This document shows, piece by piece, positions 1 through 29,913 of a DNA stretch of 64,000 nt. Each line of letters begins with the position of its first letter. Position 1 is the first letter of the stretch. Both the position numbers and the translations under genes were made by a program. The notes beneath the pieces were generated by a model. The model was not told where the DNA came from. It ran no database searches and saw nothing but the letters and a program-made list of their open reading frames with translations. The DNA comes from a virus: IMG/VR virus record IMGVR_UViG_3300032265_001591, positions 1-64,000 of that record; one strand, given 5' to 3'.

Positions 1-26
1 CTTCAGAATCAAAGGGTTAGACCCAG

Positions 27-135
27 GGCCACCAGTGGTATGGCACCCTCAGACCATACTGGGTATGGTAGGGCCATCAGTAGCCCCTTCCCTGGGGAAC
101 CATACCATACCCAGTATGGCCACCAGTGGTATGGC
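27..135. repeat. Nested direct and inverted repeats
   Basis: 18-bp direct repeat GGCCACCAGTGGTATGGC at 27-44 and 118-135; 17-bp inverted repeat CCATACTGGGTATGGTA at 54-70 / 103-119; many CCATAC/GTATGG units. Confidence 0.85.
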
Positions 136-207
136 CTGGGGACTGCCATACCATACACAGTGGGACTCATTCACACCAACTCCTATGGTACCACCTGCAC
201 AAAATTG

Positions 208-236
208 TGTACATATATTCATAAATGATATATGAT
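208..236 (+). promoter_or_regulatory. Sigma70-like phage early promoter with no downstream ORF
   Basis: TGTACA-17 nt-TATGAT, same consensus and spacer (TCATAAA) as the cassette promoters. Confidence 0.65.
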
Positions 237-354
237 GGTATGGCCTGGGACTCGACCCACGTCAGCGTTCAGACTACGTTTCTGTCACGCAGGCGCCCCG
301 TCCACCCCGGGAACTCCCCATCGACTGAGTCACTAAGCGTCAGACTATGAGCAG

Positions 355-383
355 ATTCTACCTTTTATGAATAAATATGTACA
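355..383 (-). promoter_or_regulatory. Leftward sigma70-like early promoter
   Basis: Reverse complement reads GTGTACA-TATTTATTCATAAAAGG(17)-TAGAAT. Confidence 0.7.
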
Positions 384-487
384 CCCTTCCTTCACCAGGA
401 TTCACCAGGATTCCCTGGGTCTAGACCTGTGTACATAATTAATGCATAAATGTAGAATGGTCTCCTAAACTGAATAAAGGAATGAAC

Positions 488-766
488 ATGACTGAAGACC
501 AACTGATGGCGGCGATGTCGATGAAGAACCGGCACTCCAGGAACTTCCTCATGTGCCTGGACCCGCAGGCCAGCGACTTCGACCAGCAAGTGGCAAGCCT
601 CCGGCGAGTGGCTCGCGTCAGTGGGCGTGGCATCAGGATTCGTGGTCGCCTGGGGAAGAACAACCCGCACCGACACCTGTATGCGGTAGGCGGCTCGCTG
701 TACCGGCCTAGCAGCCAGGACATTCGCATTGAGCACTCCGTGCGGGTTGACATCTACCTGAAGTAG
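488..766 (+). CDS. Hypothetical early protein (basic)
   Basis: ATG 6 nt after AAAGGA of cassette 1; GC3-rich codons. Confidence 0.8.
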   Translation: MTEDQLMAAMSMKNRHSRNFLMCLDPQASDFDQQVASLRRVARVSGRGIRIRGRLGKNNPHRHLYAVGGSLYRPSSQDIRIEHSVRVDIYLK

Positions 767-848
767 CGCCGACCCAGGGACACCTGGGGCCTGTACATAA
801 TTAATGCATAAATGTAGAATGGTCACCTCAATGCAAAAAGGAATCGAC

Positions 849-1025
849 ATGAACAACATCGACATCGAAGACATGGGCGCGGACGACCTGATGAACATCC
901 TGTTGACCCAGGGTCAGGACGCCTTCGAGGACGCCTTCAGTCAGTGGTACACCGACGAGAACCAGACCGTGTACGACCTGGTGATTCAACTGGTCGACCT
1001 GGTGAAGACCAACGCTTGCATGTAA
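849..1025 (+). CDS. Hypothetical early protein (acidic)
   Basis: ATG after cassette 2 RBS. Confidence 0.8.
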   Translation: MNNIDIEDMGADDLMNILLTQGQDAFEDAFSQWYTDENQTVYDLVIQLVDLVKTNACM

Positions 1026-1124
1026 AGAGTCCCTGGGTTCCCTGGTGAAATGATTCACCAGGGGCCTGTACATAATTAATGCATAAATGTAGAATGGCCT
1101 CCTAAACTGAATAAAGGAATCACC

Positions 1125-1325
1125 ATGATTAACGAAAAAGACGTCGAGATCCTCTTGGCCAATCTGTCCACCGGCACCGAGACGGAGTTCGCCAACCTGC
1201 TGTTCAACTTCATGCAGGCCGGTCTCGTCGACAAGGACCGGTTCCGGGACATCATCATCGGTGCCCGGGCGAAGGCCTACGACGACGGAATGGACGCGAA
1301 TTCTGACCGAGGCATTTGGACCTAA
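1125..1325 (+). CDS. Hypothetical early protein
   Basis: ATG after cassette 3 RBS. Confidence 0.8.
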   Translation: MINEKDVEILLANLSTGTETEFANLLFNFMQAGLVDKDRFRDIIIGARAKAYDDGMDANSDRGIWT

Positions 1326-1390
1326 CACGGCCTGTACATAATTAATTCATAAAGGTAGAATGGCTACCTCAGTTAAATAAAGGAATCATC

Positions 1391-1948
1391 ATGAACGACA
1401 TCACCTCCGCCCTTGCTTCCCTCAACGTCCCGGTTGGCACCAGCATCACCGAGGCCGTCAAGAACGTCCGCACCTACATCCAGGGCGACCTGGACCCCAC
1501 CGGCGAACTGGCTCGTGCCTACTCTGTGGCAGAGTCCCTGGGCGTCACTGACCCGGCCTCCATCCTGGGTGACAAGCCCCAGCGAGCCCGACTGTTTGCC
1601 ACCAGCCTGGTGGCCAGTGCCCTGGCGGTACCTACTCGGTTCGACGTCAAGGAAGCCATTGACACCGCCATCGAAAAGGTTGCCAACCTGGAGAAGATGG
1701 GTGTGGTGTCCAAGGGTACCAAGGAACCCAAGGCCAAGGTCGAGAAGCCGGTCAAGGCTCCCAAGGCGACCGGCACCAAGGCTCCTCGTGCCCCTTCGAC
1801 CCACGTCAACCTGGCCCAGGCCATCGCCATCTACCAGGCTGATCCCGGCTGCCGAGTGTACGACCTGGTGACCCGTGTGGCCGAGGCCTACAACGTCGAC
1901 CGCAACAAGGCCTACTCCATCCTTCACCGGGCTCGGAAGGCGGCCTGA
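1391..1948 (+). CDS. Hypothetical early protein, K/P/A-rich linker and possible C-terminal HTH
   Basis: ATG after cassette 4; 185 aa; basic helical C-terminus. Confidence 0.8.
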   Translation: MNDITSALASLNVPVGTSITEAVKNVRTYIQGDLDPTGELARAYSVAESLGVTDPASILGDKPQRARLFATSLVASALAVPTRFDVKEAIDTAIEKVANLEKMGVVSKGTKEPKAKVEKPVKAPKATGTKAPRAPSTHVNLAQAIAIYQADPGCRVYDLVTRVAEAYNVDRNKAYSILHRARKAA

Positions 1949-2065
1949 CCCAGGGCCTTCACCAGGGTACTCGTCCAACGGGGTACCCTGGTGAATCACC
2001 AGGCCTGTGTACATAATTAATCATAAAGTGTAGAATGGCTTCACAATATGGAAAAAGGAATGAAC

Positions 2066-2233
2066 ATGGCCACTCGACTTGACTACCTCCGCGATTGTGT
2101 TGCTGCCCTCCAGGAAGAACTGGCGGGCTACCTGGTGAACGGCGCCACGCCGGAAACCATCGAGGCCGTGACTTACGACCTGAACTGGCACCTGGATGCC
2201 TTCGAGGTCGAATACAACCTTGACTGCCAATAG
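2066..2233 (+). CDS. Hypothetical early protein
   Basis: ATG after cassette 5 RBS. Confidence 0.8.
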   Translation: MATRLDYLRDCVAALQEELAGYLVNGATPETIEAVTYDLNWHLDAFEVEYNLDCQ

Positions 2234-2243
2234 GAGGAACACC

Positions 2244-2423
2244 ATGAAGTACAGCGTTCACAGTCGTCTGACGGAATCCACCAGCTACCCCATCCAGTGG
2301 TACGTCTGCGACGAGCTCGGTCGGTGGGTTCACACCGAACCCTTCCTGACCAAGGAGATGGCCGAGGAATTCCTGAAGGGGTTCCTGGTGTGGGTTGAAT
2401 CAACTGAACCGGGAGTCCTTTAA
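2244..2423 (+). CDS. Hypothetical protein
   Basis: AGGAGG RBS then ATG. Confidence 0.75.
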   Translation: MKYSVHSRLTESTSYPIQWYVCDELGRWVHTEPFLTKEMAEEFLKGFLVWVESTEPGVL

Positions 2424-2632
2424 TGAGCAAGGGTATCACTCAAAAGATGGCTGACAAGATGGTCGAATACCGCATCATTGGTATGAATTCATTCGGGCCA
2501 TTCACTCACGGTCCGGATATCAAGTCATACGCCAAGGCGGTCAAGGAACTTGAGGGATATCGGAAGCGCCCGCATTCACCGTCGACCACCTATACGCTAA
2601 TCGAAGTCACTTGCACCGCCCTTCCAGTCTAG
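2423..2632 (+). CDS. Hypothetical protein
   Basis: TAATG stop/start coupling. Confidence 0.75.
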   Translation: MSKGITQKMADKMVEYRIIGMNSFGPFTHGPDIKSYAKAVKELEGYRKRPHSPSTTYTLIEVTCTALPV

Positions 2633-2697
2633 GAGGCCTGTGTACATTAATTCGCATAAAGTATAAGATCTATCCATATTCAAAAAGGAACTGATCA

Positions 2698-2892
2698 ATG
2701 AAGCTGCAGGTCACCATTGGTAACGACTTCACCATGAACACCACGCCCCAGGCCCTGGGTCGCTGCTTCAGCCAGGAGGACGCCAGCATCCTGAAAGACA
2801 TGCTGAACCTGTCGGCGGTCCTTCACCTGGAAGGCGAGAGCGTCAACCAGTACATCGACGGCGTCCGTTACGCCGTCACCGTCATCAAGTAA
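2698..2892 (+). CDS. Hypothetical early protein
   Basis: ATG after cassette 6. Confidence 0.8.
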   Translation: MKLQVTIGNDFTMNTTPQALGRCFSQEDASILKDMLNLSAVLHLEGESVNQYIDGVRYAVTVIK

Positions 2893-2902
2893 GGAGAATA
2901 CC

Positions 2903-3070
2903 ATGAGCAACCCCCTTGTGAACAACTTTTTCATTGACATGTTGCTGATCATCCTCCGCGACCAGGGCGAGGAAACCTTCTTCAAGCGTACCTTCAATGC
3001 CAAGGAGTATGGGCTCCTGAACCAGGAGGAATTCGAGTTCCTGATGGAAAAGGCTCTGGCCATCATCTAA
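2903..3070 (+). CDS. Hypothetical 55-aa protein (not in ORF track)
   Basis: AAGGAG RBS; MSNPLVNNFF...ALAII*. Confidence 0.75.
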   Translation: MSNPLVNNFFIDMLLIILRDQGEETFFKRTFNAKEYGLLNQEEFEFLMEKALAII

Positions 3071-3135
3071 AGGCCTGTGTACATTATTTGGTCATAAATG
3101 TAGAATAGCTACATCAAATGAATAAAGGAATGAAC

Positions 3136-3387
3136 ATGAACTACCGCAACGACATCCTTGACATGACCCGCCTGTACACCGCCCAGGAGTACAACCTCCC
3201 GGTGGCCAGCTACTGCTTGGCCCAAGCGGTTGAGCAGGTCGCTGATTACTGGTTCGAAGGCAACTTCGAGTTTGACTGCGGCATGGACGCGCAGGAAGCC
3301 GTGTGGACTGCCGGGTTGGTCCACATGGTGATGGTGAAGTACTTCGAGCTGGAACAGGAGGCCAACGTTCGTGGCGCAATGTTTTAA
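3136..3387 (+). CDS. Hypothetical early protein
   Basis: ATG after cassette 7. Confidence 0.8.
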   Translation: MNYRNDILDMTRLYTAQEYNLPVASYCLAQAVEQVADYWFEGNFEFDCGMDAQEAVWTAGLVHMVMVKYFELEQEANVRGAMF

Positions 3388-3451
3388 GGCCTGTGTACAT
3401 TAATTAGTCATAAAGGTAGAATAGCTCCATCAAATGGAAAAAGGAATCGAC

Positions 3452-3736
3452 ATGAACTACGCCTTCAACATCCTCGTCACCCTCCTTGCCACTCGCGCTG
3501 CCAACTCCCTGGGTCTGACCCTGGGCATGAAGAAGGTCGACCGCCTGGTCCGCGAAGCCACCGAGATCGTGGTGATGGACTGGTGCGAATTCGACTACGA
3601 CAAGGACGCCCAGTGGCTGGAACTGATCGCCAGCGTGGAAGCCGGTTCGGATGACGGCGAGGACCTGGTGAGTGCCATCATCAGTCAGATGAACTTCATG
3701 GGCACCCTCGTCCAGGTTGAACGCCTGGCGGCCTAA
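3452..3736 (+). CDS. Hypothetical early protein
   Basis: ATG after cassette 8. Confidence 0.8.
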   Translation: MNYAFNILVTLLATRAANSLGLTLGMKKVDRLVREATEIVVMDWCEFDYDKDAQWLELIASVEAGSDDGEDLVSAIISQMNFMGTLVQVERLAA

Positions 3737-3800
3737 GGCCTGTGTACATTAATTAGTCATAAAGGTAGAATGGTATCACCAAATGAATAAAGGAATGAAC

Positions 3801-4040
3801 ATGAAACTCTTCATCATCACCGACGTCCTTTCCGACTACACCACCGGCATGGTGGCCATCAAGGCCGAGTCCCTGGAACAGGCTCGTGAGTTCTTTGTGA
3901 AAGGCCAGTCCGAGTACATCGAGAGCGTCATCGAGGAATTTGATGACGCCATCAAGAATGGTTGCTACACCGAATTCGACCTGGCGGACACCGACGACAA
4001 AGATTCGGGTGTCATCGTTGAGGTTTATGGTGGCGGTTAG
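3801..4040 (+). CDS. Hypothetical early protein (acidic, ends VYGGG)
   Basis: ATG after cassette 9. Confidence 0.8.
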   Translation: MKLFIITDVLSDYTTGMVAIKAESLEQAREFFVKGQSEYIESVIEEFDDAIKNGCYTEFDLADTDDKDSGVIVEVYGGG

Positions 4041-4112
4041 TCACCAGGAACCTGTGTACATTAATTGCGCATAAAGGTAGAATAGCTCCATCAAATGGAA
4101 AAAGGAATCGAC

Positions 4113-4388
4113 ATGAAAAACGCATACCCCCGGTTGTCCCAAGAAGCAAAGACCAGCTGGAGATCCACTTACATGGATTTCTCCAAGAAGTCCCTTAAGA
4201 ACGCTCTGGCTACCATGAAAGACTACATTGAAATGGAAGGCGATGCTGAAGCTGTTCGCGAAGTCCAGGAGGCCTTGAAGAAGTGCCTGGACATTGTCAC
4301 TGACCTGGGCAAGAAAGAAGACGAGGCGATACGTGAATCGTACAAGAAGCGTGTGCGTGAGGAGTCTGAACAGGAAGCCATGGGTTAA
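4113..4388 (+). CDS. Hypothetical early protein (helical)
   Basis: ATG after cassette 10. Confidence 0.8.
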   Translation: MKNAYPRLSQEAKTSWRSTYMDFSKKSLKNALATMKDYIEMEGDAEAVREVQEALKKCLDIVTDLGKKEDEAIRESYKKRVREESEQEAMG

Positions 4389-4476
4389 TGACAACCCTGG
4401 TGATTCACCAGGAACCTGTGTACATTAATTAGTCATAAAGGTACAATGGCTACATCAAATGAATAAAGGAATCACC

Positions 4477-4665
4477 ATGACGCACACCGAACAGCTCGAC
4501 CTCCTGACCTCGCGCTTCCCGGACGCCAACTCCATCCTCAAGGTGGACGGCCTCTGGGAAGTGACCGAGTTTATCGGCGACATCAGCGAGGAGCGTGACC
4601 TCTACGCCTACGTCCCTGGGACCAAGAAGTTCAATTTCATCGGTCACATTTCAGTCGAAATCTAA
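4477..4665 (+). CDS. Hypothetical early protein
   Basis: ATG after cassette 11. Confidence 0.8.
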   Translation: MTHTEQLDLLTSRFPDANSILKVDGLWEVTEFIGDISEERDLYAYVPGTKKFNFIGHISVEI

Positions 4666-4676
4666 GGAGACACACC

Positions 4677-4913
4677 ATGCCTTCCATGTCATACTGCATG
4701 TTCGAGAACACCACCCTCGAGATGGATCAGATCCTCAACACCCTCGAGGAGGCCCTTGAACGGGGCCAGGACCTCAAGCTCTCGCGCGACGAACAGTACG
4801 CCTACGACCGGCTGGTCTTCCAATGCAAGCGGTTCCTTCGGTTCCAGGACCTCACGGCAGAAGAGGTTGACCTGACCGATAGCTGCTACATCGACGCCGA
4901 CGACCTGGTCTAA
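4677..4913 (+). CDS. Hypothetical protein (MSYCMFENT N-terminus)
   Basis: AAGGAG RBS; 78-aa ORF. Confidence 0.8.
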   Translation: MPSMSYCMFENTTLEMDQILNTLEEALERGQDLKLSRDEQYAYDRLVFQCKRFLRFQDLTAEEVDLTDSCYIDADDLV

Positions 4914-4923
4914 GGAGGACCAC

Positions 4924-5010
4924 ATGGAATATCTGACTGAGCTGACGATTTTGCTGTCCGTCGTGTGCCTCTGGGCCGTTCAAGCCTGGAATACCAGGAA
5001 TAACAAGTAA
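4924..5010 (+). CDS. 28-aa single-TM peptide
   Basis: AAGGAGG RBS; MEYLTELTILLSVVCLWAVQAWNTRNNK. Confidence 0.7.
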   Translation: MEYLTELTILLSVVCLWAVQAWNTRNNK

Positions 5011-5020
5011 GGAGGACCAC

Positions 5021-5098
5021 ATGGACTACATTTCAGAACTGATGATTGGCCTGGCCGTTTTCACCTACATCACTGTCCAAATCTGGGGGGACAAGTAA
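5021..5098 (+). CDS. 25-aa single-TM peptide
   Basis: AAGGAGG RBS; MDYISELMIGLAVFTYITVQIWGDK. Confidence 0.7.
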   Translation: MDYISELMIGLAVFTYITVQIWGDK

Positions 5099-5203
5099 AT
5101 GACCGCTGCCGACCTGGTCGAGGTAACCACCATCATCACCGTTGGCTGCTTGATCTACCTGCTGCTGTGGTGGCTCCAGGGCGGGGACCTCAAGGATGAT
5201 TAG
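5099..5203 (+). CDS. 34-aa single-TM peptide
   Basis: Starts immediately after previous stop; MTAADLVEVTTIITVGCLIYLLLWWLQGGDLKDD. Confidence 0.65.
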   Translation: MTAADLVEVTTIITVGCLIYLLLWWLQGGDLKDD

Positions 5204-5798
5204 TCCCGCCTAGCCTAGTCCCGCCTGGCCTGCCCAGCCCAGCCTAATCCCGCCCTACCTGCCCAGCAGCCAACCCTACCCCAGGTCCACGGCTGCGAGG
5301 GCTACAACACCCGCCACCACGGTCCACTAGTACTCCCCGCTAGGTACTAGATGGACCGTTGCCTTATGCGTGACCCGTGCAGACCCCCAGCCAGACCCAG
5401 GGGCTAACCTAGGGTAACCGGCAGGGGAGGGGTGGGAAGACCGGTTCCCTGGTGATCGGGGTCCGAACAATGGCGGCAAATCCAGAACAATGGCCATAGT
5501 GGAAAACTGGGTCCCATATTCTTCGCTGGGGACCCCATATATATGGATTCCTTAATTCTCTATGGGACTTCTACACATCACCTCCAGACTCTTACATGCA
5601 TTCTCTAAGGATCCACCACACACTTCTAAAAAACTTCCGTTTTCCAATCTAAGAGTTACTTCTAAGAACTGCATAAGAAAAAATTTCCGGGCCAGAAAAA
5701 TTCAAAAAACCCTCATTCAAATAAGAAGGCTATATACAATATACTCTATTCTGTATATAATCTCTTTATACTCTATAACAAAAGGAATATTTAAGTCT

Positions 5799-6224
5799 AT
5801 GAAAGATTATCTAACTGTTGGTATCACTGCAAGCTGTTTTGATCTGTTCCATGCTGGTCATGTACTCATGTTGGAAGAAGCTAAGGAGCACTGTCAGTAC
5901 CTGATTGCTGCTCTGCAGACCGACCCCACGCTGGACAGGCCGGAGAAGATGAAACCGATCCAGTCTGTATACGAGAGGTTTGTTCAGTTGTCTGCTTGTA
6001 AGTATGTGGACGAGGTTGTAGTCTATGATACCGAAGCTGACCTTCTGAATGTGCTGTCGTCTAGGCCGATCGATGTTCGGATCCTTGGCGAGGAGTACAT
6101 GAATAAAGAGTTTACCGGTAAGCACCTGGATCTCTTTGAGTGTGTGTTTAATAAGCGGCATCATTCCTATAGTAGTACTGAGCTGAAGCGGCGGATCGTT
6201 AAGCGTATGAGCAGTGGGGTCTGA
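5799..6224 (+). CDS. Cytidylyltransferase, glycerol-3-phosphate cytidylyltransferase (TagD)-like
   Basis: FDLFHAGH (HIGH) motif, YSSTELK C-terminal motif; start moved to ATG 5799. Confidence 0.85.
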   Translation: MKDYLTVGITASCFDLFHAGHVLMLEEAKEHCQYLIAALQTDPTLDRPEKMKPIQSVYERFVQLSACKYVDEVVVYDTEADLLNVLSSRPIDVRILGEEYMNKEFTGKHLDLFECVFNKRHHSYSSTELKRRIVKRMSSGV

Positions 6225-6225
6225 T

Positions 6226-6438
6226 ATGAACAAAGTAAGTGAACGAGTCTATATGAAAGTAAAGTTTGATCCTATGTCTGTGATTCATATTCGTGAGTAC
6301 CAGTCTTTTCTTAAGACTCGGTCTTGGAAGAAGGGGTGTCGGTTCTTGCTTGAGTGGCCTTATGTGTCAGTACCTGATATGATCAGCTCGAAGTTGATCG
6401 ACAAGCACCTTAAGACCATCTTGGAGAAAGTAGCTTGA
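6226..6438 (+). CDS. Hypothetical protein
   Basis: ORF in operon context. Confidence 0.7.
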   Translation: MNKVSERVYMKVKFDPMSVIHIREYQSFLKTRSWKKGCRFLLEWPYVSVPDMISSKLIDKHLKTILEKVA

Positions 6439-6686
6439 ACTACAAGCACAAGTATAATGGTTTCTCTTACGAGCCTGTTCAGTCCGGTAAGGGTGATAAG
6501 TACAACTTGGTTCATAACGTGACTAACACACAAACAAATGAAACTTTTCAAGCTGAGTTTACTCCTTATTGTCATATGAGTAAGATTGACTTTGAGAACT
6601 ACATCGACCTTGGATGTCCGCCTAAGCGTGAAGTACGAATGCTGTCAAGTGATACTCTTCGACGTATGAAAAATAAACAGCTATAA
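6435..6686 (+). CDS. Hypothetical protein
   Basis: TTG start overlapping previous stop, GGAG upstream. Confidence 0.65.
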   Translation: MNYKHKYNGFSYEPVQSGKGDKYNLVHNVTNTQTNETFQAEFTPYCHMSKIDFENYIDLGCPPKREVRMLSSDTLRRMKNKQL

Positions 6687-6689
6687 ATA
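6682..6689 (+). promoter_or_regulatory. T4-type late promoter upstream of speD-pqqA
   Basis: Exact TATAAATA. Confidence 0.65.
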
Positions 6690-6716
6690 ACTTTACTTTT
6701 TATTGGAGATCTGAAG

Positions 6717-7067
6717 ATGGCTTTAGGGTACCATACGATTCTTGAGTGCTACGAGTGTGATGAGGATTTACTCAAGGACCAGGCTATGCTTGAAGAATAC
6801 TTAGTCGCTTCAGCTCAAGAGGCGAGTGCTACTGTTCTTCATACTTATTTTCATAAGTTTGATCGGGGTGAAGGAGTGACCGGCGTGATTGCTTTGTCTG
6901 AATCCCACATCTCCGTTCACACCTGGCCTGAATATGGTTACATGGCCATCGACATCTTCATGTGCGGTGACAGCAATCCAATCGATGCTGCTGACTTCTT
7001 AATAAATAATTTAAGGATCGGGAAGTTTTCGATCAATACGATCAACCGTGGGGATGACTTTACTTAA
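6717..7067 (+). CDS. speD: S-adenosylmethionine decarboxylase proenzyme
   Basis: LSESHISVHTWPE autocleavage motif, DIFMCG. Confidence 0.92.
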   Translation: MALGYHTILECYECDEDLLKDQAMLEEYLVASAQEASATVLHTYFHKFDRGEGVTGVIALSESHISVHTWPEYGYMAIDIFMCGDSNPIDAADFLINNLRIGKFSINTINRGDDFT

Positions 7068-7078
7068 GGAGAACTCTT

Positions 7079-7150
7079 ATGTGGACAACACCAACATTTA
7101 ATGATGTACGTTTTGGCTTTGAAGTCACCATGTACATTCATACTCGATAA
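7079..7150 (+). CDS. pqqA: Pyrroloquinoline quinone precursor peptide
   Basis: MWTTPTFNDVRFGFEVTMYIHTR (23 aa): W-x-x-P, RFGFEVTMY with the E-x3-Y core; AAGGAG RBS. Confidence 0.93.
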   Translation: MWTTPTFNDVRFGFEVTMYIHTR

Positions 7151-7235
7151 GTATATAATATATCTGAAACAACACCCGTGACGCCTCTCCATGAAGCGCA
7201 CCAGCACGGGTTTTTAACCTTGAGGAAAGTAAATA

Positions 7236-7871
7236 ATGGCATTGATTCAAGCAGCACTCGATACTCTAGACTATGAACAAACAATTCGTCTAGCACAACG
7301 CATCTCACCCTATGTAGATATCATTGAACTCGGCACTCCATGTGTCAAATATAATGGTATTCGTATTGTTGAAACTGTTCACACATTGATTCCAAAGTGT
7401 CTAACACTTGCCGATCTTAAGACGATGGATGCTGGGTATTATGAAGCATTACCATTCTACGAAGTTGGGGCTGATATCGTCACCGTTCTTGGTGCTGCTG
7501 ATGCTGGTACAATCAAAGGAGTAGTTGAAGCGTCTAAGACTACTAAAGCCCAAGCACAAGTTGATCTTATTAATGTAAAGAATAAGCTAGAAACAGTTGC
7601 ACTTGCTTATGAGCTTGGTGCTCATATTATTGGTGTACATACTGGACTAGATCAGCAAGCAAAAGGTCAGACTCCTTTTGAAGATCTAAGGAAAGTTCAG
7701 CAAATGAAAGTTGGTCTAAAGATCTCTGTTGCTGGTGGTATCAATAAAGATACTGTTCGTCAAGCAATTGATGCTGGTGCTGATATCGTTGTAGTAGGTG
7801 CAGCGATCTACGGTGCTGCTGATCCTGTTCGCGCTGCAGCTGAGATTTGGGAAGCTGTTGAACGTGGCTAA
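7236..7871 (+). CDS. hxlA: 3-hexulose-6-phosphate synthase (HPS, RuMP pathway)
   Basis: ALD, IELGTP, DLKTMDAG, GVHTGLDQQA.GQTPF, VAGG, GAAIYGA motifs typical of methylotroph HPS. Confidence 0.95.
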   Translation: MALIQAALDTLDYEQTIRLAQRISPYVDIIELGTPCVKYNGIRIVETVHTLIPKCLTLADLKTMDAGYYEALPFYEVGADIVTVLGAADAGTIKGVVEASKTTKAQAQVDLINVKNKLETVALAYELGAHIIGVHTGLDQQAKGQTPFEDLRKVQQMKVGLKISVAGGINKDTVRQAIDAGADIVVVGAAIYGAADPVRAAAEIWEAVERG

Positions 7872-8430
7872 TTATTCTGATGTTCTTGATATTGTAAGAG
7901 ACGAACTACTTTATACCGAAAAGGAAACATGTCAGCAGCTTATTGATGTACTCATTCATACGATAAGTCGGAAAGAACATTATAACGGTGGAAGAGTGTT
8001 TATTGCTGCTGCTGGTAGATCTAAGATGGTTGCCAATATGTTTGCGATGCGAATGATGCATTGTGGGCTAAATGTGCAGGTAGTTGGAGAAACTACTACA
8101 ACTCAGATAACGAGATTTGATTCGCTTCTTCTTGTTTCCGGTTCGGGTGAGACTAAGCAGTTAATTACTTTTGCTGAGAAGGCAAAGTCAGTTCGTTCTG
8201 AAGTATTGTTAGTTACAGCAAATCCAACTTCTACTCTTAGGAATATGGCTGATGAGGTTTTTCAGATTGGTCCATCAAGTAGAGCTCTGTCTACAAACAA
8301 GAATCTTCCTCTTGGTAGCAGGTTTGAACTCTCTACTATGATATTCTTTGAGACAGTCATTCTTAATTTTATGGAACAACTTCAATTAAATGAAGATAAT
8401 CTAAGAGACTGTCATACTAACTTAGAATAA
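7864..8430 (+). CDS. hxlB: 6-phospho-3-hexuloisomerase (PHI, SIS fold)
   Basis: AGRS, FAMR.MH.G, VVGE, SGSGET, PLGSRFE, HTNLE C-terminus; GTG start overlapping hxlA stop. Confidence 0.92.
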   Translation: MANYSDVLDIVRDELLYTEKETCQQLIDVLIHTISRKEHYNGGRVFIAAAGRSKMVANMFAMRMMHCGLNVQVVGETTTTQITRFDSLLLVSGSGETKQLITFAEKAKSVRSEVLLVTANPTSTLRNMADEVFQIGPSSRALSTNKNLPLGSRFELSTMIFFETVILNFMEQLQLNEDNLRDCHTNLE

Positions 8431-8439
8431 TAAATAGTA

Positions 8440-8753
8440 TTGTTGGTATGGTCGTATGAAGTAAAGGGAAGGTATTCTGGACGCGGGTGCGAATCCCGCC
8501 ACCTCCACCAAAAGCATATTGGGATAAGCTTTCGTGTTTAGGCTTTAGAGTGCCGTATTAACGCCAATATGCTTTTGACGGGGGTGACTAGATTCGACAG
8601 GGTAAGATACTGATACAGACGACTCGGTAGGCGATGACCGTAAATCAAGCAAAAAATATAAAAGCCAACGATGACTTTTACGGAGATTATGCACTAGCTG
8701 CATAATTCTTCTGGGGTTTCGCCAGCTGTCCTTATTACCCAATCAGCTGGCAC
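8440..8753 (+). ncRNA. ssrA: Circularly permuted (two-piece) tmRNA
   Basis: T-arm and CACCUCC-A-CCA end at 8510 precede a hairpin spacer and the GGGGGUG 5' acceptor strand at 8580 (G3.U70 pair); tag frame 8664-8705 ANDDFYGDYALAA*; outer ends approximate. Confidence 0.9.
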
Positions 8754-8776
8754 TATTTAATCATTAGAGTTTTATT

Positions 8777-9205
8777 ATGGATACTCACCCGCGAAAGCGG
8801 AATCAAAAGATTCTTGACTTCCTCTCCAAAGCCGCTGAAGCCGCAGACCATGCCGGTATACGTGCTAAGTTAGCAGCCGCAGTTGTCATCAAAAATGAGA
8901 TTATTTCAATTGGATTCAATCGTAGAAAAACTCATCCCTTTCAAGCACAGTTTCAAACAAATGAACAACAGATTTATTTACATGCTGAAACCGATGCTAT
9001 CAATCGAGCACTCAAATACGTAACAAAAGAAGAGTTGCGCAAAGCTACTCTTTACGTTGCTCGTGTAAAATATAAAGACGGACGAAATAAACAAGCTATT
9101 TGGGCTGAGAGCAAACCGTGTATTGGTTGCCAAAAAGCCATCAAATCATATGGAATTGTTAATGTTATTCATACTTGCGATGGGGGTGTATACAAATCTA
9201 TCTAA
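8777..9205 (+). CDS. Cytidine/dCMP deaminase-family zinc protein
   Basis: HAE and PCxxC motifs. Confidence 0.8.
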   Translation: MDTHPRKRNQKILDFLSKAAEAADHAGIRAKLAAAVVIKNEIISIGFNRRKTHPFQAQFQTNEQQIYLHAETDAINRALKYVTKEELRKATLYVARVKYKDGRNKQAIWAESKPCIGCQKAIKSYGIVNVIHTCDGGVYKSI

Positions 9206-9241
9206 TAAATAGAAGATAACAGTTTCATTCAGGAATAGTCT

Positions 9242-10369
9242 ATGTTATCTTTTGTTCAATACATACTAGAAGTAGCTTTAAGTGCAAGCGGTAACCGCGC
9301 AGAATATCATGCTTCTAAATATTTGGACCCATATATCGGTGGGCATGAAACAGTTAAGCATGTACTTAATGCACCAACTCAAATAGGTGATATTTTACAC
9401 CCTGCCGGCACAGAGATTACTGTTCATGCTTCACGTGATGAACATGGTAATAGGATTACTAGAGGAAAGCATGGAGCTTTTCATAGTGTTGTATCTGTAA
9501 ATGGCGGCCCTCGTCATGAAATTTCAAATTCTAGGATTAAAAAACCTAATTTAGGTAATGCTAATGCAAACAATAAAGCATTTGCTGATGCATTTGAAGC
9601 ATATACTGTAAAAAGAATACATCATATGACAACACATAATAATGATGATCCAGTTCATAAAAAAAGAATGGCAGATATTCAACGTGCTTTTAATGAAGCA
9701 GCTAGTAAAATTCCAATGCATTTGCGTAAAAGAGCAAAAACCTTAGGTAAAAGAGCGGCAAACGCATATCTAAAAAGTTTAGAGAGTCAAGGAATAACTA
9801 AAGATGATATACATGAAGTTCATTTGACCAATAAAGGAATAAGCAACGCAATTGGAAGAGAAGTTTCACGTCGCAATAATCCACATGATATAATCATAAA
9901 AACTAAAGATGGTAAATTTCACGGAGCTTCATTAAAAGCTAGTGAAGGCACAGTGAGTAATAATGGTCTAAAGACATTTGATGAACATTCAATATTTAAT
10001 GGTAAACCTACCAATATAAAAGGAGCGTGGGTAGCACAATCAAATGGAAATGCTGCGGCTGAACACCATGCAAATATGTTTAATTCAGCAAATGATAAAG
10101 AAAAAAAAGATCACTTGCATTACTTACTTAAAAGTCATCCTGATGTGCCATATCATTATGTAGTTGCTGATCAAGATAAATCTATATCCATTGAAAACCA
10201 TCCTGTTATAAAAGCAATAAATAAAGCAACAAAAATAACAGCTGAACGTAGAGGTGCAAATGTTCATTTCTATGATCAAGATGGAAAACACTTAGCTTAC
10301 GTGGAACATCGTCGTCCAGGTAAAGGAAAATCACCACAAGCAAATGCTAAATTTGGGAGTTTAAAATGA
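9242..10369 (+). CDS. His-rich protein, possible PD-(D/E)XK nuclease fold, capsid-targeting-like N-terminus
   Basis: MLSFVQYILE; NPHDIIIK...GASLK. Confidence 0.55.
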   Translation: MLSFVQYILEVALSASGNRAEYHASKYLDPYIGGHETVKHVLNAPTQIGDILHPAGTEITVHASRDEHGNRITRGKHGAFHSVVSVNGGPRHEISNSRIKKPNLGNANANNKAFADAFEAYTVKRIHHMTTHNNDDPVHKKRMADIQRAFNEAASKIPMHLRKRAKTLGKRAANAYLKSLESQGITKDDIHEVHLTNKGISNAIGREVSRRNNPHDIIIKTKDGKFHGASLKASEGTVSNNGLKTFDEHSIFNGKPTNIKGAWVAQSNGNAAAEHHANMFNSANDKEKKDHLHYLLKSHPDVPYHYVVADQDKSISIENHPVIKAINKATKITAERRGANVHFYDQDGKHLAYVEHRRPGKGKSPQANAKFGSLK

Positions 10370-11313
10370 AATCATTTATTACATTCATCGTTGAATCAAT
10401 AAGACAAGGATTGCCACATATCACAAAGATGACTCGTGATCAATTTGACAATTTAACTAAAGATGGTAAAGTTCATTTAAATAAGATTACCGAAAAGACT
10501 GATGGCATGACCCATATGATGGGGTATGATGAACATGGGTTTTATACTCAAAGTTCTGGTTCAGGCAATGAGAAAATGAGAAGTCCTCAAGATTTTGTTG
10601 ATAGAGCAACAAGAAGATCACAAGAAACAGGCAAACCTCTTGATCTTACTGCAGCAAATTCATTTGGTCATATTCATAAGATTCTTCATGCTAACCAAGG
10701 CTTACAAGATCATTTAAGATCACAGTTTGAAAAAACTGGACAAGAAGTTAAAGTTCGTGGTGAAGCTTTTTATAAACCACTTTCGACTCCATCTGAAACA
10801 ACTCCAGGTGAAATTAAATTTGTTGGCACTTCATATGATCCTTCACATATGGGATCAGTTGGTAAATATGTTATTCATTCACAATTACCAGAAAATCATC
10901 ATGTAGATCTTGAGCATTTCAAATCACACTTATCTACACCTGAAATGAATTTTGATGATGATATCATTAAGCATAAGCCTGCGCATCTTGATGTATCTGA
11001 TGAAGTTAAAGATTATCATGGATTAAATCATGAACTTCTTGCTGCAAGAACATCTCCAAAAAATAAAGAAGCTAAAGAAGCAGAGAATGCTAAATTTGAT
11101 GCCATCAAGCAAAGAGTATCTGATAAAGTCGATGCTCATTTCAAATCAGCGGGGTTGACTCCTAAATGGGGAAGTGGTTCAGAAGGATTTGTAGTTCATC
11201 CTTCATCTGAAAATCCTGAAGCTCCTCGATTTAAAAAAACTTCAGATGATTTTAGAGCTTATAAAGCAAATCCTGAAAATGCTGCTAACTTTAAGAAAAG
11301 GCAAACGACATGA
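10366..11313 (+). CDS. RNA/DNA ligase-like covalent nucleotidyltransferase
   Basis: Motif I TEKTDG, III RGEAF, IV SEGFVV, V RFKK; N-terminus MKSFITFIVE. Confidence 0.65.
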   Translation: MKSFITFIVESIRQGLPHITKMTRDQFDNLTKDGKVHLNKITEKTDGMTHMMGYDEHGFYTQSSGSGNEKMRSPQDFVDRATRRSQETGKPLDLTAANSFGHIHKILHANQGLQDHLRSQFEKTGQEVKVRGEAFYKPLSTPSETTPGEIKFVGTSYDPSHMGSVGKYVIHSQLPENHHVDLEHFKSHLSTPEMNFDDDIIKHKPAHLDVSDEVKDYHGLNHELLAARTSPKNKEAKEAENAKFDAIKQRVSDKVDAHFKSAGLTPKWGSGSEGFVVHPSSENPEAPRFKKTSDDFRAYKANPENAANFKKRQTT

Positions 11314-12176
11314 TTAGATTTGTACAATTTATTTTAGAAGGTGGTAATATAAAGATCGGCGACGTATCAGCCGCGCCATTTTCTGTTACTGAAAAAAATA
11401 GAAGTGAGAGAGTTAAAGACGCTAAAGATGCTTTAAGTGAATTGCATGATTCATTCCATAAAGAACATGGTGAAGAATTATTTGGTAAAAATAAAAAGGG
11501 ATTAGCAAGCGGATCTATATTTGCAGGATCAACGCGACAACTAATGGATCCAAAAATTAGTGATAGCGAATTTGCTAAACATAAATCAACTGTTGGTGAC
11601 ATGGATGTTCAGGTGATGAGAGATCATGGTGATAAACTTACATCGCATTTAACACCCGGCAAACGATTTGGTAAATATACTGTAGTTGGAACTAAGAAAC
11701 ATGGTAATGAAATTTCAGCAGTGATGAAACACGACAATGGTGAACACCATCAATTTGATTTTGAAAAAGTGCATTATGAAAATGGTGAGCCAACTCCAGC
11801 TGAACAATTTCTTCATAGTGCAAATTGGGAAGATACAAAGGCAGGAATTAAAGGTGCTCATCATAAGATCCTTTTAAATGCTGCTGGTGGCACTACACAT
11901 AAGTTTTCAATCTCACACGGTTTACGTTCAAGAACTGATGAATCTGATCCGGGCGCACAACATCCAAATGATGTGTCAGCAAGACTGTTTGGCAATAAAG
12001 CAGATCATTCAAAAGTTACTTCATTCTTAGGAGTGTCTGATTTAATTAAGAATCATATTCCTAAAGAACAACACCAAGCAATCTATGATAAATTTAAAGA
12101 AGGTGTTTCACGATTAAAAGTTGATAATGAACCTGCGCTTGCACACTTAAGAAAAACATTAGGAGTTCATGACTAA
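11310..12176 (+). CDS. Pol-beta-superfamily nucleotidyltransferase-like protein
   Basis: AGS...GDMDV...QFDF motif pattern; N-terminus MIRFVQFILE. Confidence 0.6.
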   Translation: MIRFVQFILEGGNIKIGDVSAAPFSVTEKNRSERVKDAKDALSELHDSFHKEHGEELFGKNKKGLASGSIFAGSTRQLMDPKISDSEFAKHKSTVGDMDVQVMRDHGDKLTSHLTPGKRFGKYTVVGTKKHGNEISAVMKHDNGEHHQFDFEKVHYENGEPTPAEQFLHSANWEDTKAGIKGAHHKILLNAAGGTTHKFSISHGLRSRTDESDPGAQHPNDVSARLFGNKADHSKVTSFLGVSDLIKNHIPKEQHQAIYDKFKEGVSRLKVDNEPALAHLRKTLGVHD

Positions 12177-12784
12177 TGAAGAGCTTAAGGGCATTTATCT
12201 ACGAACAAGAAGTGCATCATGTGTCCGTTGTTCCTCTGGTTGGGTTTTCACCTTTATCTCACATGGGGCATGCACATGATTTAGGCGGAACTTTATCCAA
12301 TTTGCCAGGAAGTAAACATGTTGGAATATCAGCAAAGTCTGATGTGTTTACTCCAGAAGAAAGAAAAAATGTTTTAAATAGACAATGGGGTTCTAATGTA
12401 AAAGCAGAAGTTAGCAATTCTGGTGGAGCAACAATCGCTAATGCTTTTAATTCAATGCCTAAGACTGGTAAAAAGGTATTACACATTGTCGTTGGTTCAG
12501 ATCGTCTTGGGTTTGCTGAAGGATTAAAGAACAGTCTTGAAGCAGGAAAAATAAAAGAAATGGGTGATAATAATTTTGATGAGATTCATATTCATACTCC
12601 TAAAGATGAAGATAGAAGTCATGGAATGAGTGGAACAAACATGAGACAAGCTGCAACTAATGGCGATATTGAAACGTTCCATAAACATTTAGGAACAATG
12701 TTCTCAAGACAAGAAGCTCAAGACATGATGAAAAAAACAAAAGAAGCTATTGATTCAGGTAAACTAAAAGTTAAAAGGAAATAA
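12176..12784 (+). CDS. Cytidyltransferase-like (HIGH/NMNAT fold) protein
   Basis: FSPLSHMGH, VVGSDR, MSGTNMR motifs; N-terminus MKSLRAFIYE. Confidence 0.7.
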   Translation: MKSLRAFIYEQEVHHVSVVPLVGFSPLSHMGHAHDLGGTLSNLPGSKHVGISAKSDVFTPEERKNVLNRQWGSNVKAEVSNSGGATIANAFNSMPKTGKKVLHIVVGSDRLGFAEGLKNSLEAGKIKEMGDNNFDEIHIHTPKDEDRSHGMSGTNMRQAATNGDIETFHKHLGTMFSRQEAQDMMKKTKEAIDSGKLKVKRK

Positions 12785-12788
12785 TATT

Positions 12789-13436
12789 ATGAGTTATGCT
12801 ACATTAATAAATGTGCGAAATCAATTTGTAGATGAATATAGTAATTGGCTTTGGGTTGCTCAAGATTCTGGTGCATGGATAGGGCCTTCTCAAGAGTGGG
12901 CTTCACACAAAGCAATAATACAAAAGTATGTTAAGAAATATGATTGTATAGTTCAAGCCGGTGGAAATCTTGGTCTATATCCAATGCTATATTCAAGATT
13001 ATTTAAGACAGTATATACATTTGAACCAGATCCTTTAAATTTTCATTGCTTAGTGAATAACTGCCAATATGATAATATCGTCAAAATTCAAGCTGCATTA
13101 TCTGATTCTCATGAAATGATGAAAGTGAATCGTAATGGATTTTCAAATGTTGGTGCATACACCGTAAGTAGAGATAAAACAGCAATTATTCCATCACTTA
13201 AACTTGATGATTTTGATTTTGAAACTCTTGATGCAATTCACTTAGACATTGAAAACTTTGAAGAACATGCATTACGTGGCGCAATTGAAACAATCAATAA
13301 GCATAAACCAGTTCTTCTTTTAGAAAATGGACATCGTGTTGAAGTCATGACTGAGATACTAAAATTAGGTTATGAAGTTAGAGATAGATCCGGATCAGAT
13401 ACACTTTTTATGCCAATTAAAAATATAAATAGATAA
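12789..13436 (+). CDS. FkbM-family methyltransferase
   Basis: QAGGNLG, FEPD, LDIE.FE motifs. Confidence 0.85.
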   Translation: MSYATLINVRNQFVDEYSNWLWVAQDSGAWIGPSQEWASHKAIIQKYVKKYDCIVQAGGNLGLYPMLYSRLFKTVYTFEPDPLNFHCLVNNCQYDNIVKIQAALSDSHEMMKVNRNGFSNVGAYTVSRDKTAIIPSLKLDDFDFETLDAIHLDIENFEEHALRGAIETINKHKPVLLLENGHRVEVMTEILKLGYEVRDRSGSDTLFMPIKNINR

Positions 13437-14518: not shown

Positions 14519-14760
14519 TGGAAGAACTTATAAAAGAGATTCTATCTCATAAGAATGAAGATGGTGTTATTGGCGAATTAGCTAATGAACTATATAACAT
14601 AATTGAAGATCATAAAGCTGGTCAAATCACAGATGAAGATCTTAAAGAATTATTGACAGAAACTATTAATGCTTTTAAAGCACATGAAAATGCTAATAAT
14701 GAAGTAATGATTAGATGGGCAGTTAAGATTGCACAACTTGCAGCAAAGGCAATGATATAA
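14518..14760 (+). CDS. Hypothetical protein
   Basis: TAATG coupling. Confidence 0.7.
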   Translation: MEELIKEILSHKNEDGVIGELANELYNIIEDHKAGQITDEDLKELLTETINAFKAHENANNEVMIRWAVKIAQLAAKAMI

Positions 14761-15197
14761 TGAATCTCATAGATGCAGTAAAAGTAGTACTAGCAAATAA
14801 TTTTGCACTTTATCTAAAGGCTCACTATTTTCATTGGAATGTAGAAGGTCCAGATTTTGCACAATTTCATGAATTCTTTGAAAATCTTTATACTGATATC
14901 TATAGCTCAATAGATCATTTTGCAGAAGAAATTAGAGCGTTGGACGCATACGCTCCTGGATCTTTTGAACGTTACGTTGAACTTTCTCAGATCAAAGGTG
15001 AAGAAAGAATTTTAACCGCCCCAGAAATGTTACGTCAGTTGCAAATTGATAATCAGACAATGATTGCTTCTATGAATACTGCTTATAATTTAGCTAATGC
15101 AGCAAATGAAATCGGACTTTCAAATTTTATTCAAGATAGAACTGACCAACATAAAAAACACGCTTGGATGATCAGATCATTCCTTAAGGGACAATAA
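14760..15197 (+). CDS. dps: Dps/ferritin-like DNA protection protein
   Basis: HYFHWNVEG.DF..FHEFFE, D.FAEEIR, KKHAWM motifs. Confidence 0.9.
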   Translation: MNLIDAVKVVLANNFALYLKAHYFHWNVEGPDFAQFHEFFENLYTDIYSSIDHFAEEIRALDAYAPGSFERYVELSQIKGEERILTAPEMLRQLQIDNQTMIASMNTAYNLANAANEIGLSNFIQDRTDQHKKHAWMIRSFLKGQ

Positions 15198-25543: not shown

Positions 25544-25957
25544 ATGTGGTTTTACGAAGAAAAAGAAATAGATCATGAACTTTCAATTAAATACTACGGC
25601 TTTATATATTGCATTGAGCATATGCCATCAGGCAAAAAATATATAGGCCGTAAGTATTTCACTAAAGCTGCAACAAAGCAAGTCAAAGGAAAAAGAAAGA
25701 AGATCCGTAAAGACTCTGATTGGAAAGACTATTGGGGATCATCTACAAAACTCCTAGAAGAAATAGAAAAGCTCGGAAAAGAAAACTTTAAAAGAACAAT
25801 CATACGATTATGTAAGACGCGTGGTGAATGTAACTATTGGGAAGCTAAGTTACAATTTGAACAAGACGTATTATGCGCAACTATGCAAAATGGTGAACCA
25901 GCATACTATAATGAAAATATAATGATGAAGTTTACTCGAAGAAATATAGGAAAATAA
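25544..25957 (+). CDS. GIY-YIG family nuclease (short)
   Basis: GFIY...KKYIGRK...YWGSS. Confidence 0.75.
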   Translation: MWFYEEKEIDHELSIKYYGFIYCIEHMPSGKKYIGRKYFTKAATKQVKGKRKKIRKDSDWKDYWGSSTKLLEEIEKLGKENFKRTIIRLCKTRGECNYWEAKLQFEQDVLCATMQNGEPAYYNENIMMKFTRRNIGK

Positions 25958-27012: not shown

Positions 27013-27648
27013 ATGCACTACACAATTTATAAAGTTACAAACAAGATAGATGGCAAGATCTATATTGGATCTCATAAGACCAAAAATCTTGATGACGGCT
27101 ACATGGGTTCAGGTAAGTATCTTAAACGAGCAATAGAGAAATACGGTATTGAAAATTTTGAAAAAGAAATACTGTTCGTTTACGACAACCCTGAAGCTAT
27201 GTATCAAAAAGAAGGCGAAATTGTTAACGAAGATTTTCTCTCTACAGAAAACACTTACAACTTGAAAGTTGGTGGATTTGGTGGATGGGATTACATAAAT
27301 CAGAATGACTTAAGTGGCGGAGGTTGGCGAAAGTCATCATCAGAAAAAAAATCTAAATCTGGTAGATTTGGAGGAATTACAGCATTCAATAAAAAAGTTG
27401 GAATCTTTAGTGAAGAGTCAAAAAATAAATCAAAAAAGACGCTGTTGGAAAAATATCCTAACGGCACCTTTTATGGAAAAACTCATTCCGAAGAAGCCAA
27501 AAAGATTATATCGCAACGAAATTCTATGATGCAATCCGGTGAAAAAAATTCACAATATGGCACGATGTGGATCACTAATGGCATTAAAAATGCAAAAATT
27601 AAAAGAAATGACGCTATTCCGGATGGGTGGCAAAAAGGAAGAAAATGA
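27013..27648 (+). mobile_element. Free-standing GIY-YIG homing endonuclease (Seg-like, NUMOD3) within tRNA cluster
   Basis: TIY...IYIG.H...YMGSG; FYGKTHSEEAKK; own late promoter TATAAATA at 26989-26996. Confidence 0.85.
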
Positions 27649-29730: not shown

Positions 29731-29913
29731 ATGAAAAGATTTATAATAAAAGACTCGCCTTCTCATGTGTTTGAAGATGATGTAGATTATTCTATTCCTT
29801 CACATTCTGATTTAACACAGGTATGCGAAGCGTTTACTTTTTTTCTAAAAGCGTGTGGCTATAATCTCGATGGACAATATGTAACAATTGATTTTCACGA
29901 TGACTTAAAATGA
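29731..29913 (+). CDS. Hypothetical protein
   Basis: GAGG RBS, 60 aa. Confidence 0.65.
   Translation: MKRFIIKDSPSHVFEDDVDYSIPSHSDLTQVCEAFTFFLKACGYNLDGQYVTIDFHDDLK

Follow-up and report, generated by a model that had tools for sequence, protein, structure and literature searches.

Why should a T4-like bacteriophage carry genes for the handling of methanol-derived formaldehyde? The question is raised by a compact run of plus-strand genes in IMG/VR virus record IMGVR_UViG_3300032265_001591 (hereafter G000), a 73.7-kb record with a CheckV completeness of 44%, the first 64 kb of which were analysed and are referred to below as the window. Here pqqA, coding for the precursor peptide of pyrroloquinoline quinone (PQQ), is followed by hxlA and hxlB, predicted to code for the formaldehyde-fixing enzymes 3-hexulose-6-phosphate synthase (HPS) and 6-phospho-3-hexuloisomerase (PHI), and by a two-piece transfer-messenger RNA (tmRNA). 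With moderate confidence, we read this as a genuine phage auxiliary-metabolism cassette that would sustain PQQ supply and formaldehyde fixation in an infected methylotroph using the ribulose monophosphate (RuMP) pathway. Host-type metabolic genes with viral genes on both sides are found in more than one independent genome, the pattern that marks auxiliary metabolic genes (AMGs), and from it and the sequence features described below we infer the host, the timing of expression, the direction of flux and the benefit to the phage.

The enzyme assignments come first. The product of hxlA (7236–7871) scores 232.9 bits against TIGR03128 (cut-off 200), with 204 of the 205 model positions covered (232.4 bits in a six-frame scan of the genome), and aligns end to end with the HPS structure of Mycobacterium gastri (3AJX; 144 bits). 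Residues E31, D60, K62, D65 and H135 are invariant in the alignment and line up with their counterparts in 3AJX and in 3-keto-L-gulonate-6-phosphate decarboxylase (KGPDC); we take them to be the metal-binding Glu and Asp, the Lys and Asp of the D-x-K-x-x-D motif and the catalytic His of the OMPDC suprafamily. At the KGPDC specificity positions E112, R139 and T169, the phage protein carries the HPS-type residues D110, L138 and A166, which explains why it scores better against the engineered KGPDC variants 1XBX (76.4 bits; D, V and A at the three positions) and 1XBY (75.1 bits; D and A, with R139 kept) than against the wild-type enzyme 1KV8 (71.4 bits). HxlA is predicted to be an HPS, condensing formaldehyde with D-ribulose-5-phosphate to D-arabino-3-hexulose-6-phosphate. 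The adjoining hxlB (7864–8430) begins with a GTG at 7864 that overlaps the hxlA stop codon, the same codon being ATG in the related contig L004, and its SIS-domain product scores 164.6 bits against TIGR03127 (cut-off 160), residues 40–188 aligning to model positions 28–178. Against Bacillus subtilis YckF (1M3S), PHI scores 103 bits; the SIS-domain sugar-phosphate loops align, the motifs AAGRS/GRS, SGSGET, P(L)GS.FE and a terminal HTNLE are present, and the HxNLE C-terminus is kept in all phage copies. The order hxlA-hxlB is common to all of the phage contigs and to many methylotroph genomes. With bacterial HxlA and HxlB proteins (3AJX, 1M3S, 1JEO), the phage proteins have in common the families, the full-length alignment, the metal, lysine and histidine residues and the adjacent gene order, whereas they differ in forming a separate clade, in being virus-encoded and in having alleles that recombine independently.

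Upstream of these two genes, pqqA (7079–7150) is preceded by the ribosome-binding site AAGGAG and codes for a 23-residue peptide (MWTTPTFNDVRFGFEVTMYIHTR; TIGR02107, 43.9 bits against a cut-off of 20). The peptide contains the E-x3-Y cross-link pair (EVTMY), that is, the Glu and Tyr that form PQQ, and this pair is kept in 13 other phage-type contigs despite substitutions elsewhere in PqqA. Further upstream lies speD (6717–7067), coding for a Bacillus-type S-adenosylmethionine (SAM) decarboxylase proenzyme (PF02675, 3.5e-37; TIGR03330, 129 bits against 75.65) with the ESH...HTWPE self-cleavage region; cyanomyophages, too, are known to carry speD. The initial annotation, made from the sequence without database searches, had described speD, a 23-residue PqqA, HPS and PHI lying in tandem with intact motifs, and this description holds: all four products score above the curated NCBIfam cut-offs and all four genes are on the plus strand.

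Downstream of hxlB, a two-piece (permuted) tmRNA occupies 8408–8796 on the plus strand (ARAGORN, 8418–8796; Rfam, 8408–8763), scoring 147.1 bits against RF04321 (gathering score 47) and 121.5 bits against RF01850 (84). The acceptor/T-arm piece precedes the coding piece, and the tag frame, ANDDFYGDYALAA, ends in ALAA. Two-piece tmRNAs were called by ARAGORN after hxlB in three further contigs, namely L002 (11187–11575), L003 (2234–2633) and L007 (11619–12009); the tags found among these and the window are ANDDFYGDYALAA, VAANDDLFEGYALAA and VASNDDHYEMALAA, and the backbones are unrelated. ARAGORN found no tmRNA after hxlB in L004/L005, which have only 74% DNA similarity to positions 8440–8743 of the window, and no glutamine riboswitch reached the Rfam threshold.

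The initial annotation had proposed a search of viral databases for pqqA-hxlA-hxlB synteny, and this search returned the arrangement, in part with the tmRNA, in about 13 other viral or metagenome contigs (L002, L003, L004/L005 and L007 from IMG/VR; L105–L113 from metagenomes) and in at least four different phage contexts. The cassette is found after nrdB, after a GC-rich block of small genes or before a dCMP deaminase gene. In L004/L005 it stands directly after nrdB of an nrdAB pair, and in L003, L105, L107, L109 and L110 it is followed by the dCMP deaminase gene that also follows it in the window. Contig L112 is collinear with window positions 6453–13417, its PqqA being 100% identical and the open reading frame (ORF) that matches 10366–11313 being 97% identical. 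Common to all of them is hxlA-hxlB, in nearly every case immediately preceded by pqqA and immediately followed by the tmRNA; in L002, pqqA lies on the opposite strand 2.2 kb downstream, and in L007 no pqqA was seen within 20 kb. Judged by gene order across these contigs, the conserved unit is pqqA-hxlAB-tmRNA. Of the four genes that the initial annotation saw in tandem, speD does not belong to it: although 98% identical in L112, speD lies outside the conserved unit because it is located elsewhere in other phages (between nrdA and nrdB in L002, at the contig start in L109), and the constant partner is the two-piece tmRNA instead.

Of these contigs, L007 departs furthest from the window. It derives from an 89.9-kb record that is 25% complete, the phage being estimated at about 360 kb, and we take it to be a different phage because no gp32 was detected in the record and the flanking proteins are unlike those of the window; hxlA-hxlB-tmRNA is also carried, then, by a quite different and probably very large phage. 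A few kilobases upstream of hxlA-hxlB-tmRNA, L007 encodes two adjacent proteins of about 630 residues (100–3872) with weak matches to the amidoligase family PF12224, and almost no other neighbour has a Pfam match. Among cultured phages, no genuine carrier of HPS or PHI emerged from a DNA and protein search of 50,697 GenBank phage records; the matches obtained were rejected as host-DNA records labelled as phage or as unrelated.

The copies have not travelled as fixed blocks. In L112 the backbone genes are 97–100% identical to those of the window, whereas HxlA (784–1425) is only 71% identical; in L107 and L109, HxlA is 94% identical and HxlB (5831–6361 and 7897–8427, respectively) only 49%; and in L002, HPS is 96% identical but the core proteins only 45–58%. 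Evidently, to judge from these identities, the hxlA and hxlB alleles have been swapped independently and the cassette has been exchanged among phages. All copies are intact, and pairwise ratios of nonsynonymous to synonymous substitution (dN/dS) among the phage copies are 0.06–0.22 for both enzymes, out to a dS of about 1.8, and therefore the two proteins have been under long purifying selection in phages. The phylogenies against Methylophilaceae and Methylococcales that had been suggested were run for HPS, as a quick maximum-likelihood tree of 121 sequences. In it, 21 viral and metagenome HPS sequences, the latter presumed viral, form one clade (support 95) that groups with neither the Methylophilaceae clade nor the Methylophaga/Methylococcaceae clade; the tree is unrooted and has no outgroup. 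No bacterial HPS is more than 63% identical to the phage enzyme and no bacterial PHI more than about 49%, while metagenome clusters close to the phage proteins comprise about 34 for HPS (at least 83% identity) and 47 for PHI (at least 82%).

Sequence motifs around the cassette suggest that hxlAB are transcribed from a promoter of their own. An early-type, sigma-70-like promoter (TGTACA-N17-TATAAT) is predicted at 7131–7159, upstream of hxlA; L003 has the same conserved site, and so does L004, where TTTACA replaces TGTACA. Promoters of the type TGTAC-N18-TANNAT occur 18 times against 0.79 expected, 14 of them in a GC-rich island at the left end of the window, one at 7131 and three in the AT-rich core (26844, 31043 and 37780). 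The promoter is followed by a 75-nt hxlA leader (7160–7235) that is conserved in L002, L003 and L004, including a hairpin followed by U5 (7174–7216). Between the window (CCCGUG...CACGGG) and the others (CCCACG...CGUGGG), two basal pairs of this hairpin change on both sides. Shuffled sequences fold about as stably as the hairpin (z 0.2), and no Rfam family matches the leader at gathering score; it could be a terminator of the pqqA transcript, a stem-loop like those of PeSL promoter/stem-loop elements or an attenuator. The module had initially been placed downstream of a late promoter. The T4 late-promoter-like motif TATAAATA is indeed present on the plus strand at 6682–6689, 28 nt upstream of the speD start, and each of the six copies in the window precedes a start codon on the same strand, in five cases by no more than about 35 nt; however, the motif is not enriched (six found against 7.5 expected) and hxlAB have the early-type promoter and stem-loop just described. 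The weakly supported late promoter at 6682 would serve speD and pqqA.

The genome around the cassette is that of a phage, as had been claimed. By its gene content, G000 is a fragment of a T4-like myovirus from a metagenome: the window encodes the gp6 baseplate wedge protein, primase, NrdAB, ThyX, RNase H, gp59, gp32, PhoH and SegE together with six tRNAs. By gp6, Caulobacter phage Cr30 is the closest isolate (41% identity), and identity to the OM43 phage Melnitz and to pelagimyophages is 34%. Two SegE-type GIY-YIG homing-endonuclease genes are found at 25544–25957 and 27013–27648; the first lies directly after nrdB, the exact site of pqqA-hxlA-hxlB in L004/L005, and this site looks like an insertion hot spot.

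As for the host, a PQQ-dependent RuMP methylotroph, most likely a member of the Methylophilaceae, would fit these features best. The best bacterial matches of HPS are to Methylophilaceae (60–63%), and the low GC content (about 35%), the T4-like type, PqqA and a cytidylyltransferase gene match those of Methylophilaceae phages from Lake Baikal (PMC7678222). Each of the four Methylophilaceae genomes checked has five scattered pqqA copies with near-identical peptides, so that stand-alone extra copies are normal in them. This suggests that PqqA supply matters in the family and fits PqqA as a consumable, limiting part of PQQ synthesis. A Methylophaga genome has two tandem copies. Two possible host markers were rejected: PqqA, the core of which (RFGFEVTMY) is identical in Methylophilaceae and Methylophaga, and the tmRNA, as the phage type (beta two-piece model) is absent above threshold from all four Methylophilaceae genomes tested.

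In such a host, the cassette may act as follows. When host transcription is shut down, the phage would supply extra PqqA, the sole component of the PQQ pathway that is consumed one-for-one, for processing by host PqqB–E, and it would supply fresh HPS and PHI. Formaldehyde from methanol dehydrogenase could then be continuously condensed with ribulose-5-phosphate and isomerised to fructose-6-phosphate, which would spare the infected cell formaldehyde poisoning and keep carbon entering the assimilatory and cyclic-oxidative RuMP routes. These routes would yield NAD(P)H and pentose phosphates, and the pentose phosphates and reducing power may feed nucleotide synthesis by the phage ribonucleotide reductase (RNR), ThyX and dCMP deaminase. 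The cassette itself occupies hyperplastic regions, carries a PeSL-like early-type promoter and stem-loop and passes between phages by recombination. This functional reading is consistent with all of the findings.

Several observations nevertheless weigh against it. PHI only narrowly passes its cut-off, and its N-terminal 39 residues are divergent and fall outside the model. The clues to the host diverge, the HPS clade being equidistant from several methylotroph families, PHI reaching only 36–49% identity with its bacterial counterparts, the closest of which are from Methylococcaceae and Methylophaga, and PqqA sharing 17 of 23 residues with Methylophaga versus 15 of 23 with Methylophilaceae. 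A search of 301 Methylophilaceae genomes gave no spacer-like match, the matches listed all being to hxlA at 65–70% nucleotide identity. Methanol dehydrogenase and pqqE (TIGR02109), the only one of the processing genes pqqB–E that was searched for, are absent from G000 and four related viral records (13–44% complete), and processing of PqqA would therefore fall to host enzymes. Finally, HPS and PHI are already abundant and stable proteins in such hosts, and the need for more of them is not obvious.

Four other explanations were weighed. The HPS and PHI reactions are reversible and are run in reverse by archaea without an oxidative pentose phosphate pathway, and a phage could likewise convert fructose-6-phosphate via hexulose-6-phosphate to ribulose-5-phosphate and formaldehyde, drawing pentose phosphate for deoxynucleoside triphosphates (dNTPs) from the host hexose pool. 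The neighbourhood of the cassette suits this idea, nucleotide genes adjoining it as dCMP deaminase downstream in most contigs and as nrdAB directly upstream in L004/L005. However, the phage enzymes group with the HPS of methylotrophic Proteobacteria and not with archaeal fusion forms, and the linkage to pqqA suggests a host in which formaldehyde is produced by a PQQ dehydrogenase. In such a host the reverse reaction would be thermodynamically disfavoured and would add to the toxin; we regard it as unlikely.

Alternatively, fructose-6-phosphate might be diverted to sugar nucleotides with which virion proteins, DNA or the cell envelope would be glycosylated. The window does encode a cytidylyl/adenylyltransferase (5793–6224), a phosphomannomutase-like protein (29910–30632) and a GT1 glycosyltransferase (31680–32621), and in L003 a GDP-mannose-dehydratase/epimerase-like gene (62–883) lies directly upstream of pqqA. 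These sugar-handling neighbours are, however, not conserved with the cassette across contigs, neither a mannose-6-phosphate isomerase nor a guanylyltransferase was present among the ORFs scanned, and pqqA would be left unexplained, which makes this proposal quite unlikely.

Variable positions and swapped alleles, the PeSL-like promoter and stem-loop (PMC4122927) and SegE-type homing-endonuclease genes in the same regions would also be expected if the cassette were a selfish passenger, moving through hyperplastic regions by recombination or homing, possibly together with the tmRNA, and bringing no metabolic benefit. We hold this to be very unlikely in view of the intact copies and low dN/dS, which speak for long selection on the products, and of the fact that all three coding genes belong to one-carbon (methanol and formaldehyde) metabolism.

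To the last explanation, that the module is host DNA mis-assembled onto phage DNA or cellular contamination of the viral record, we attach almost no weight: the GC content changes abruptly at about 5550, and that of the module (about 41%) is intermediate between the island and the core, but T4-like genes surround the cassette in assemblies obtained independently from other samples, no bacterial genome exceeds 63% amino acid or 70% nucleotide identity to the module, and both origins are thereby effectively excluded. A host chimera was the refutation named in the initial annotation, and the independent contigs, including the collinear L112, largely remove this worry. The same annotation had called the genome otherwise purely phage, which is true of its T4-like genes but leaves out of account the GC-rich island at 1–5560. 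The GC content is 50–63% in the island and 33–36% in the AT-rich core, and the two kinds of DNA adjoin about 1.2 kb upstream of the module. The island is probably real, because homologues of its small genes adjoin both the cassette and AT-rich phage DNA in L002 and share a contig with the cassette in L109, which likewise has a GC-rich patch next to AT-rich DNA, and because the promoter type of the island recurs in the AT-rich core. An exact 40-mer across the junction (about 5540) was absent from the other viral contigs searched, and the join at 5200–5790 is the only place where a mis-assembly might still lie.

The island itself is a block of small plus-strand genes, most of them preceded by a repeated unit of about 60–90 nt (9–14 copies) that consists of TGTACA, 17 nt, TAGAAT, the ribosome-binding site AAAGGAAT and ATG; it is two of these genes that have homologues adjoining the cassette in L002, and others that have them in L109. 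Near its end, three consecutive ORFs of 25–34 codons (4924–5203) encode hydrophobic peptides, two of them with a duplicated TAAGGAGGACCACATGGA start region, and may represent small membrane proteins at the end of an early island. Over the following 600 nt or so (5200–5790), no credible ORF is found and the GC content drops from 64% to 33%, the GC-rich half being of low complexity with repeats of CCCGCC, TAGCC and CCCAGCC. Between the island and speD lie two plus-strand genes outside the conserved cassette. The cytidylyltransferase-like gene at 5793–6224 (PF01467, 1.2e-14) has weak, below-cut-off matches to rfaE domain II and to glycerol-3-phosphate cytidylyltransferase and is preceded by a promoter-like site, TATACA-N17-TATAAT (5733–5761). 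The small ORF at 6435–6686, to which no function is assigned, has no Pfam match and is 97% identical in L112 and 44% in L107/L109. On the other side, the usual downstream neighbour is the plus-strand dCMP/cytidine deaminase-like gene (8777–9205; PF00383, 2e-11), 82–92% identical downstream of the cassette in L003, L105, L107, L109, L110 and L112. A ferritin-like protein (14760–15197) is a further host-type product encoded in the window.

How much of this has precedent? Thompson et al. are said to have described in 2011 the cyanophage carbon-metabolism AMGs talC, zwf, gnd and cp12, and the host-derived carbon enzymes of T4-like cyanophages are thought to steer flux to NADPH and pentose phosphate for dNTPs. 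The concept is alike, in that T4-like phages carry host-derived central-carbon enzymes, but those genes concern the Calvin cycle and the pentose phosphate pathway, whereas the genes discussed here, known from sequence alone, concern formaldehyde, the RuMP cycle and a cofactor precursor peptide. Closer still are the T4-like Methylophilaceae phages VP_139 and VP_266 of Lake Baikal, which carry PqqA, methanol dehydrogenase and SAM-cycle genes and have been interpreted as stimulating methylotrophy for the benefit of nucleotide production (Coutinho et al. 2020, PMC7678222). By description rather than sequence comparison, they resemble G000 in being uncultivated, T4-like and of about 35% GC and in having PqqA, a glycerol-3-phosphate-cytidylyltransferase-like gene and RNR; however, that paper does not mention HPS or PHI, whereas the window has both and no methanol dehydrogenase is found in the 44% of the genome at hand. 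hxlA and hxlB have been called on viral contigs in a KEGG-based AMG list from freshwater mesocosms in 2025 (PMC12370912), and hxlB on cattle gut virome contigs (bioRxiv 10.1101/2025.05.24.655612), as KEGG numbers only, without integrity, context, pqqA or tmRNA linkage, phylogeny or host analysis; beyond such lists, no description of phage HPS or PHI was found in the literature searched. The paper on the OM43 phage Melnitz mentions neither enzyme (PMC9004378). Melnitz does have a permuted ssrA in a T4-like aquatic phage that is not of its host's tmRNA type, in contrast to which the tmRNA of the window best fits the permuted and beta-type Rfam models and is tied to hxlB in L002, L003 and L007. 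PeSL elements mediate gene shuffling in T4-like phages (Comeau 2014, PMC4122927; Arbiol 2010, PMC2839356). The present cassette is similar to theirs in having an early promoter and stem-loop at the border of a variable block and in that the block occupies different sites in related genomes, but the hairpin in the window is no more stable than shuffles and the likeness is one of sequence.

In the light of PMC7678222 (PqqA with methanol dehydrogenase) and PMC12370912 (hxlA and hxlB in a list), the suggestion in the initial annotation that the complete set had not been described in a phage was overstated. The pqqA-hxlA-hxlB-tmRNA cassette itself appears to be undescribed, and the new details are its linkage to pqqA and a tmRNA, the virus-specific clade and the independent exchange of alleles. 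More tentatively, and with rather less than even confidence, we propose that it is a self-contained, promoter-bearing mobile cassette that has long circulated among unrelated methylotroph phages, T4-like ones and the phage of about 360 kb alike, and that maintains a virus-specific pool of HPS and PHI. As PqqA and methanol dehydrogenase in such phages have already been published, the advance is incremental and not conceptual. The cassette is compact, occurs widely and could readily be tested, and the distinct viral HPS clade offers a marker by which methylotroph phages can be followed through metagenomes.

In lakes and coastal seas, a large share of the methanol and other one-carbon compounds released is consumed by Methylophilaceae and related RuMP methylotrophs, for which formaldehyde is the central intermediate as well as the chief poison. 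If HPS, PHI and PqqA are provided by phages, the one-carbon flux of infected cells would come partly under viral control, and the paradigm of cyanophage AMGs for photosynthesis and the pentose phosphate pathway would extend to methylotrophy. Should the cassette indeed circulate as proposed, phage enzymes would control the formaldehyde node, that is, both detoxification and entry into the RuMP cycle, in a substantial share of infected methylotrophs, and viral infection would be a direct factor in the fate of methanol carbon.

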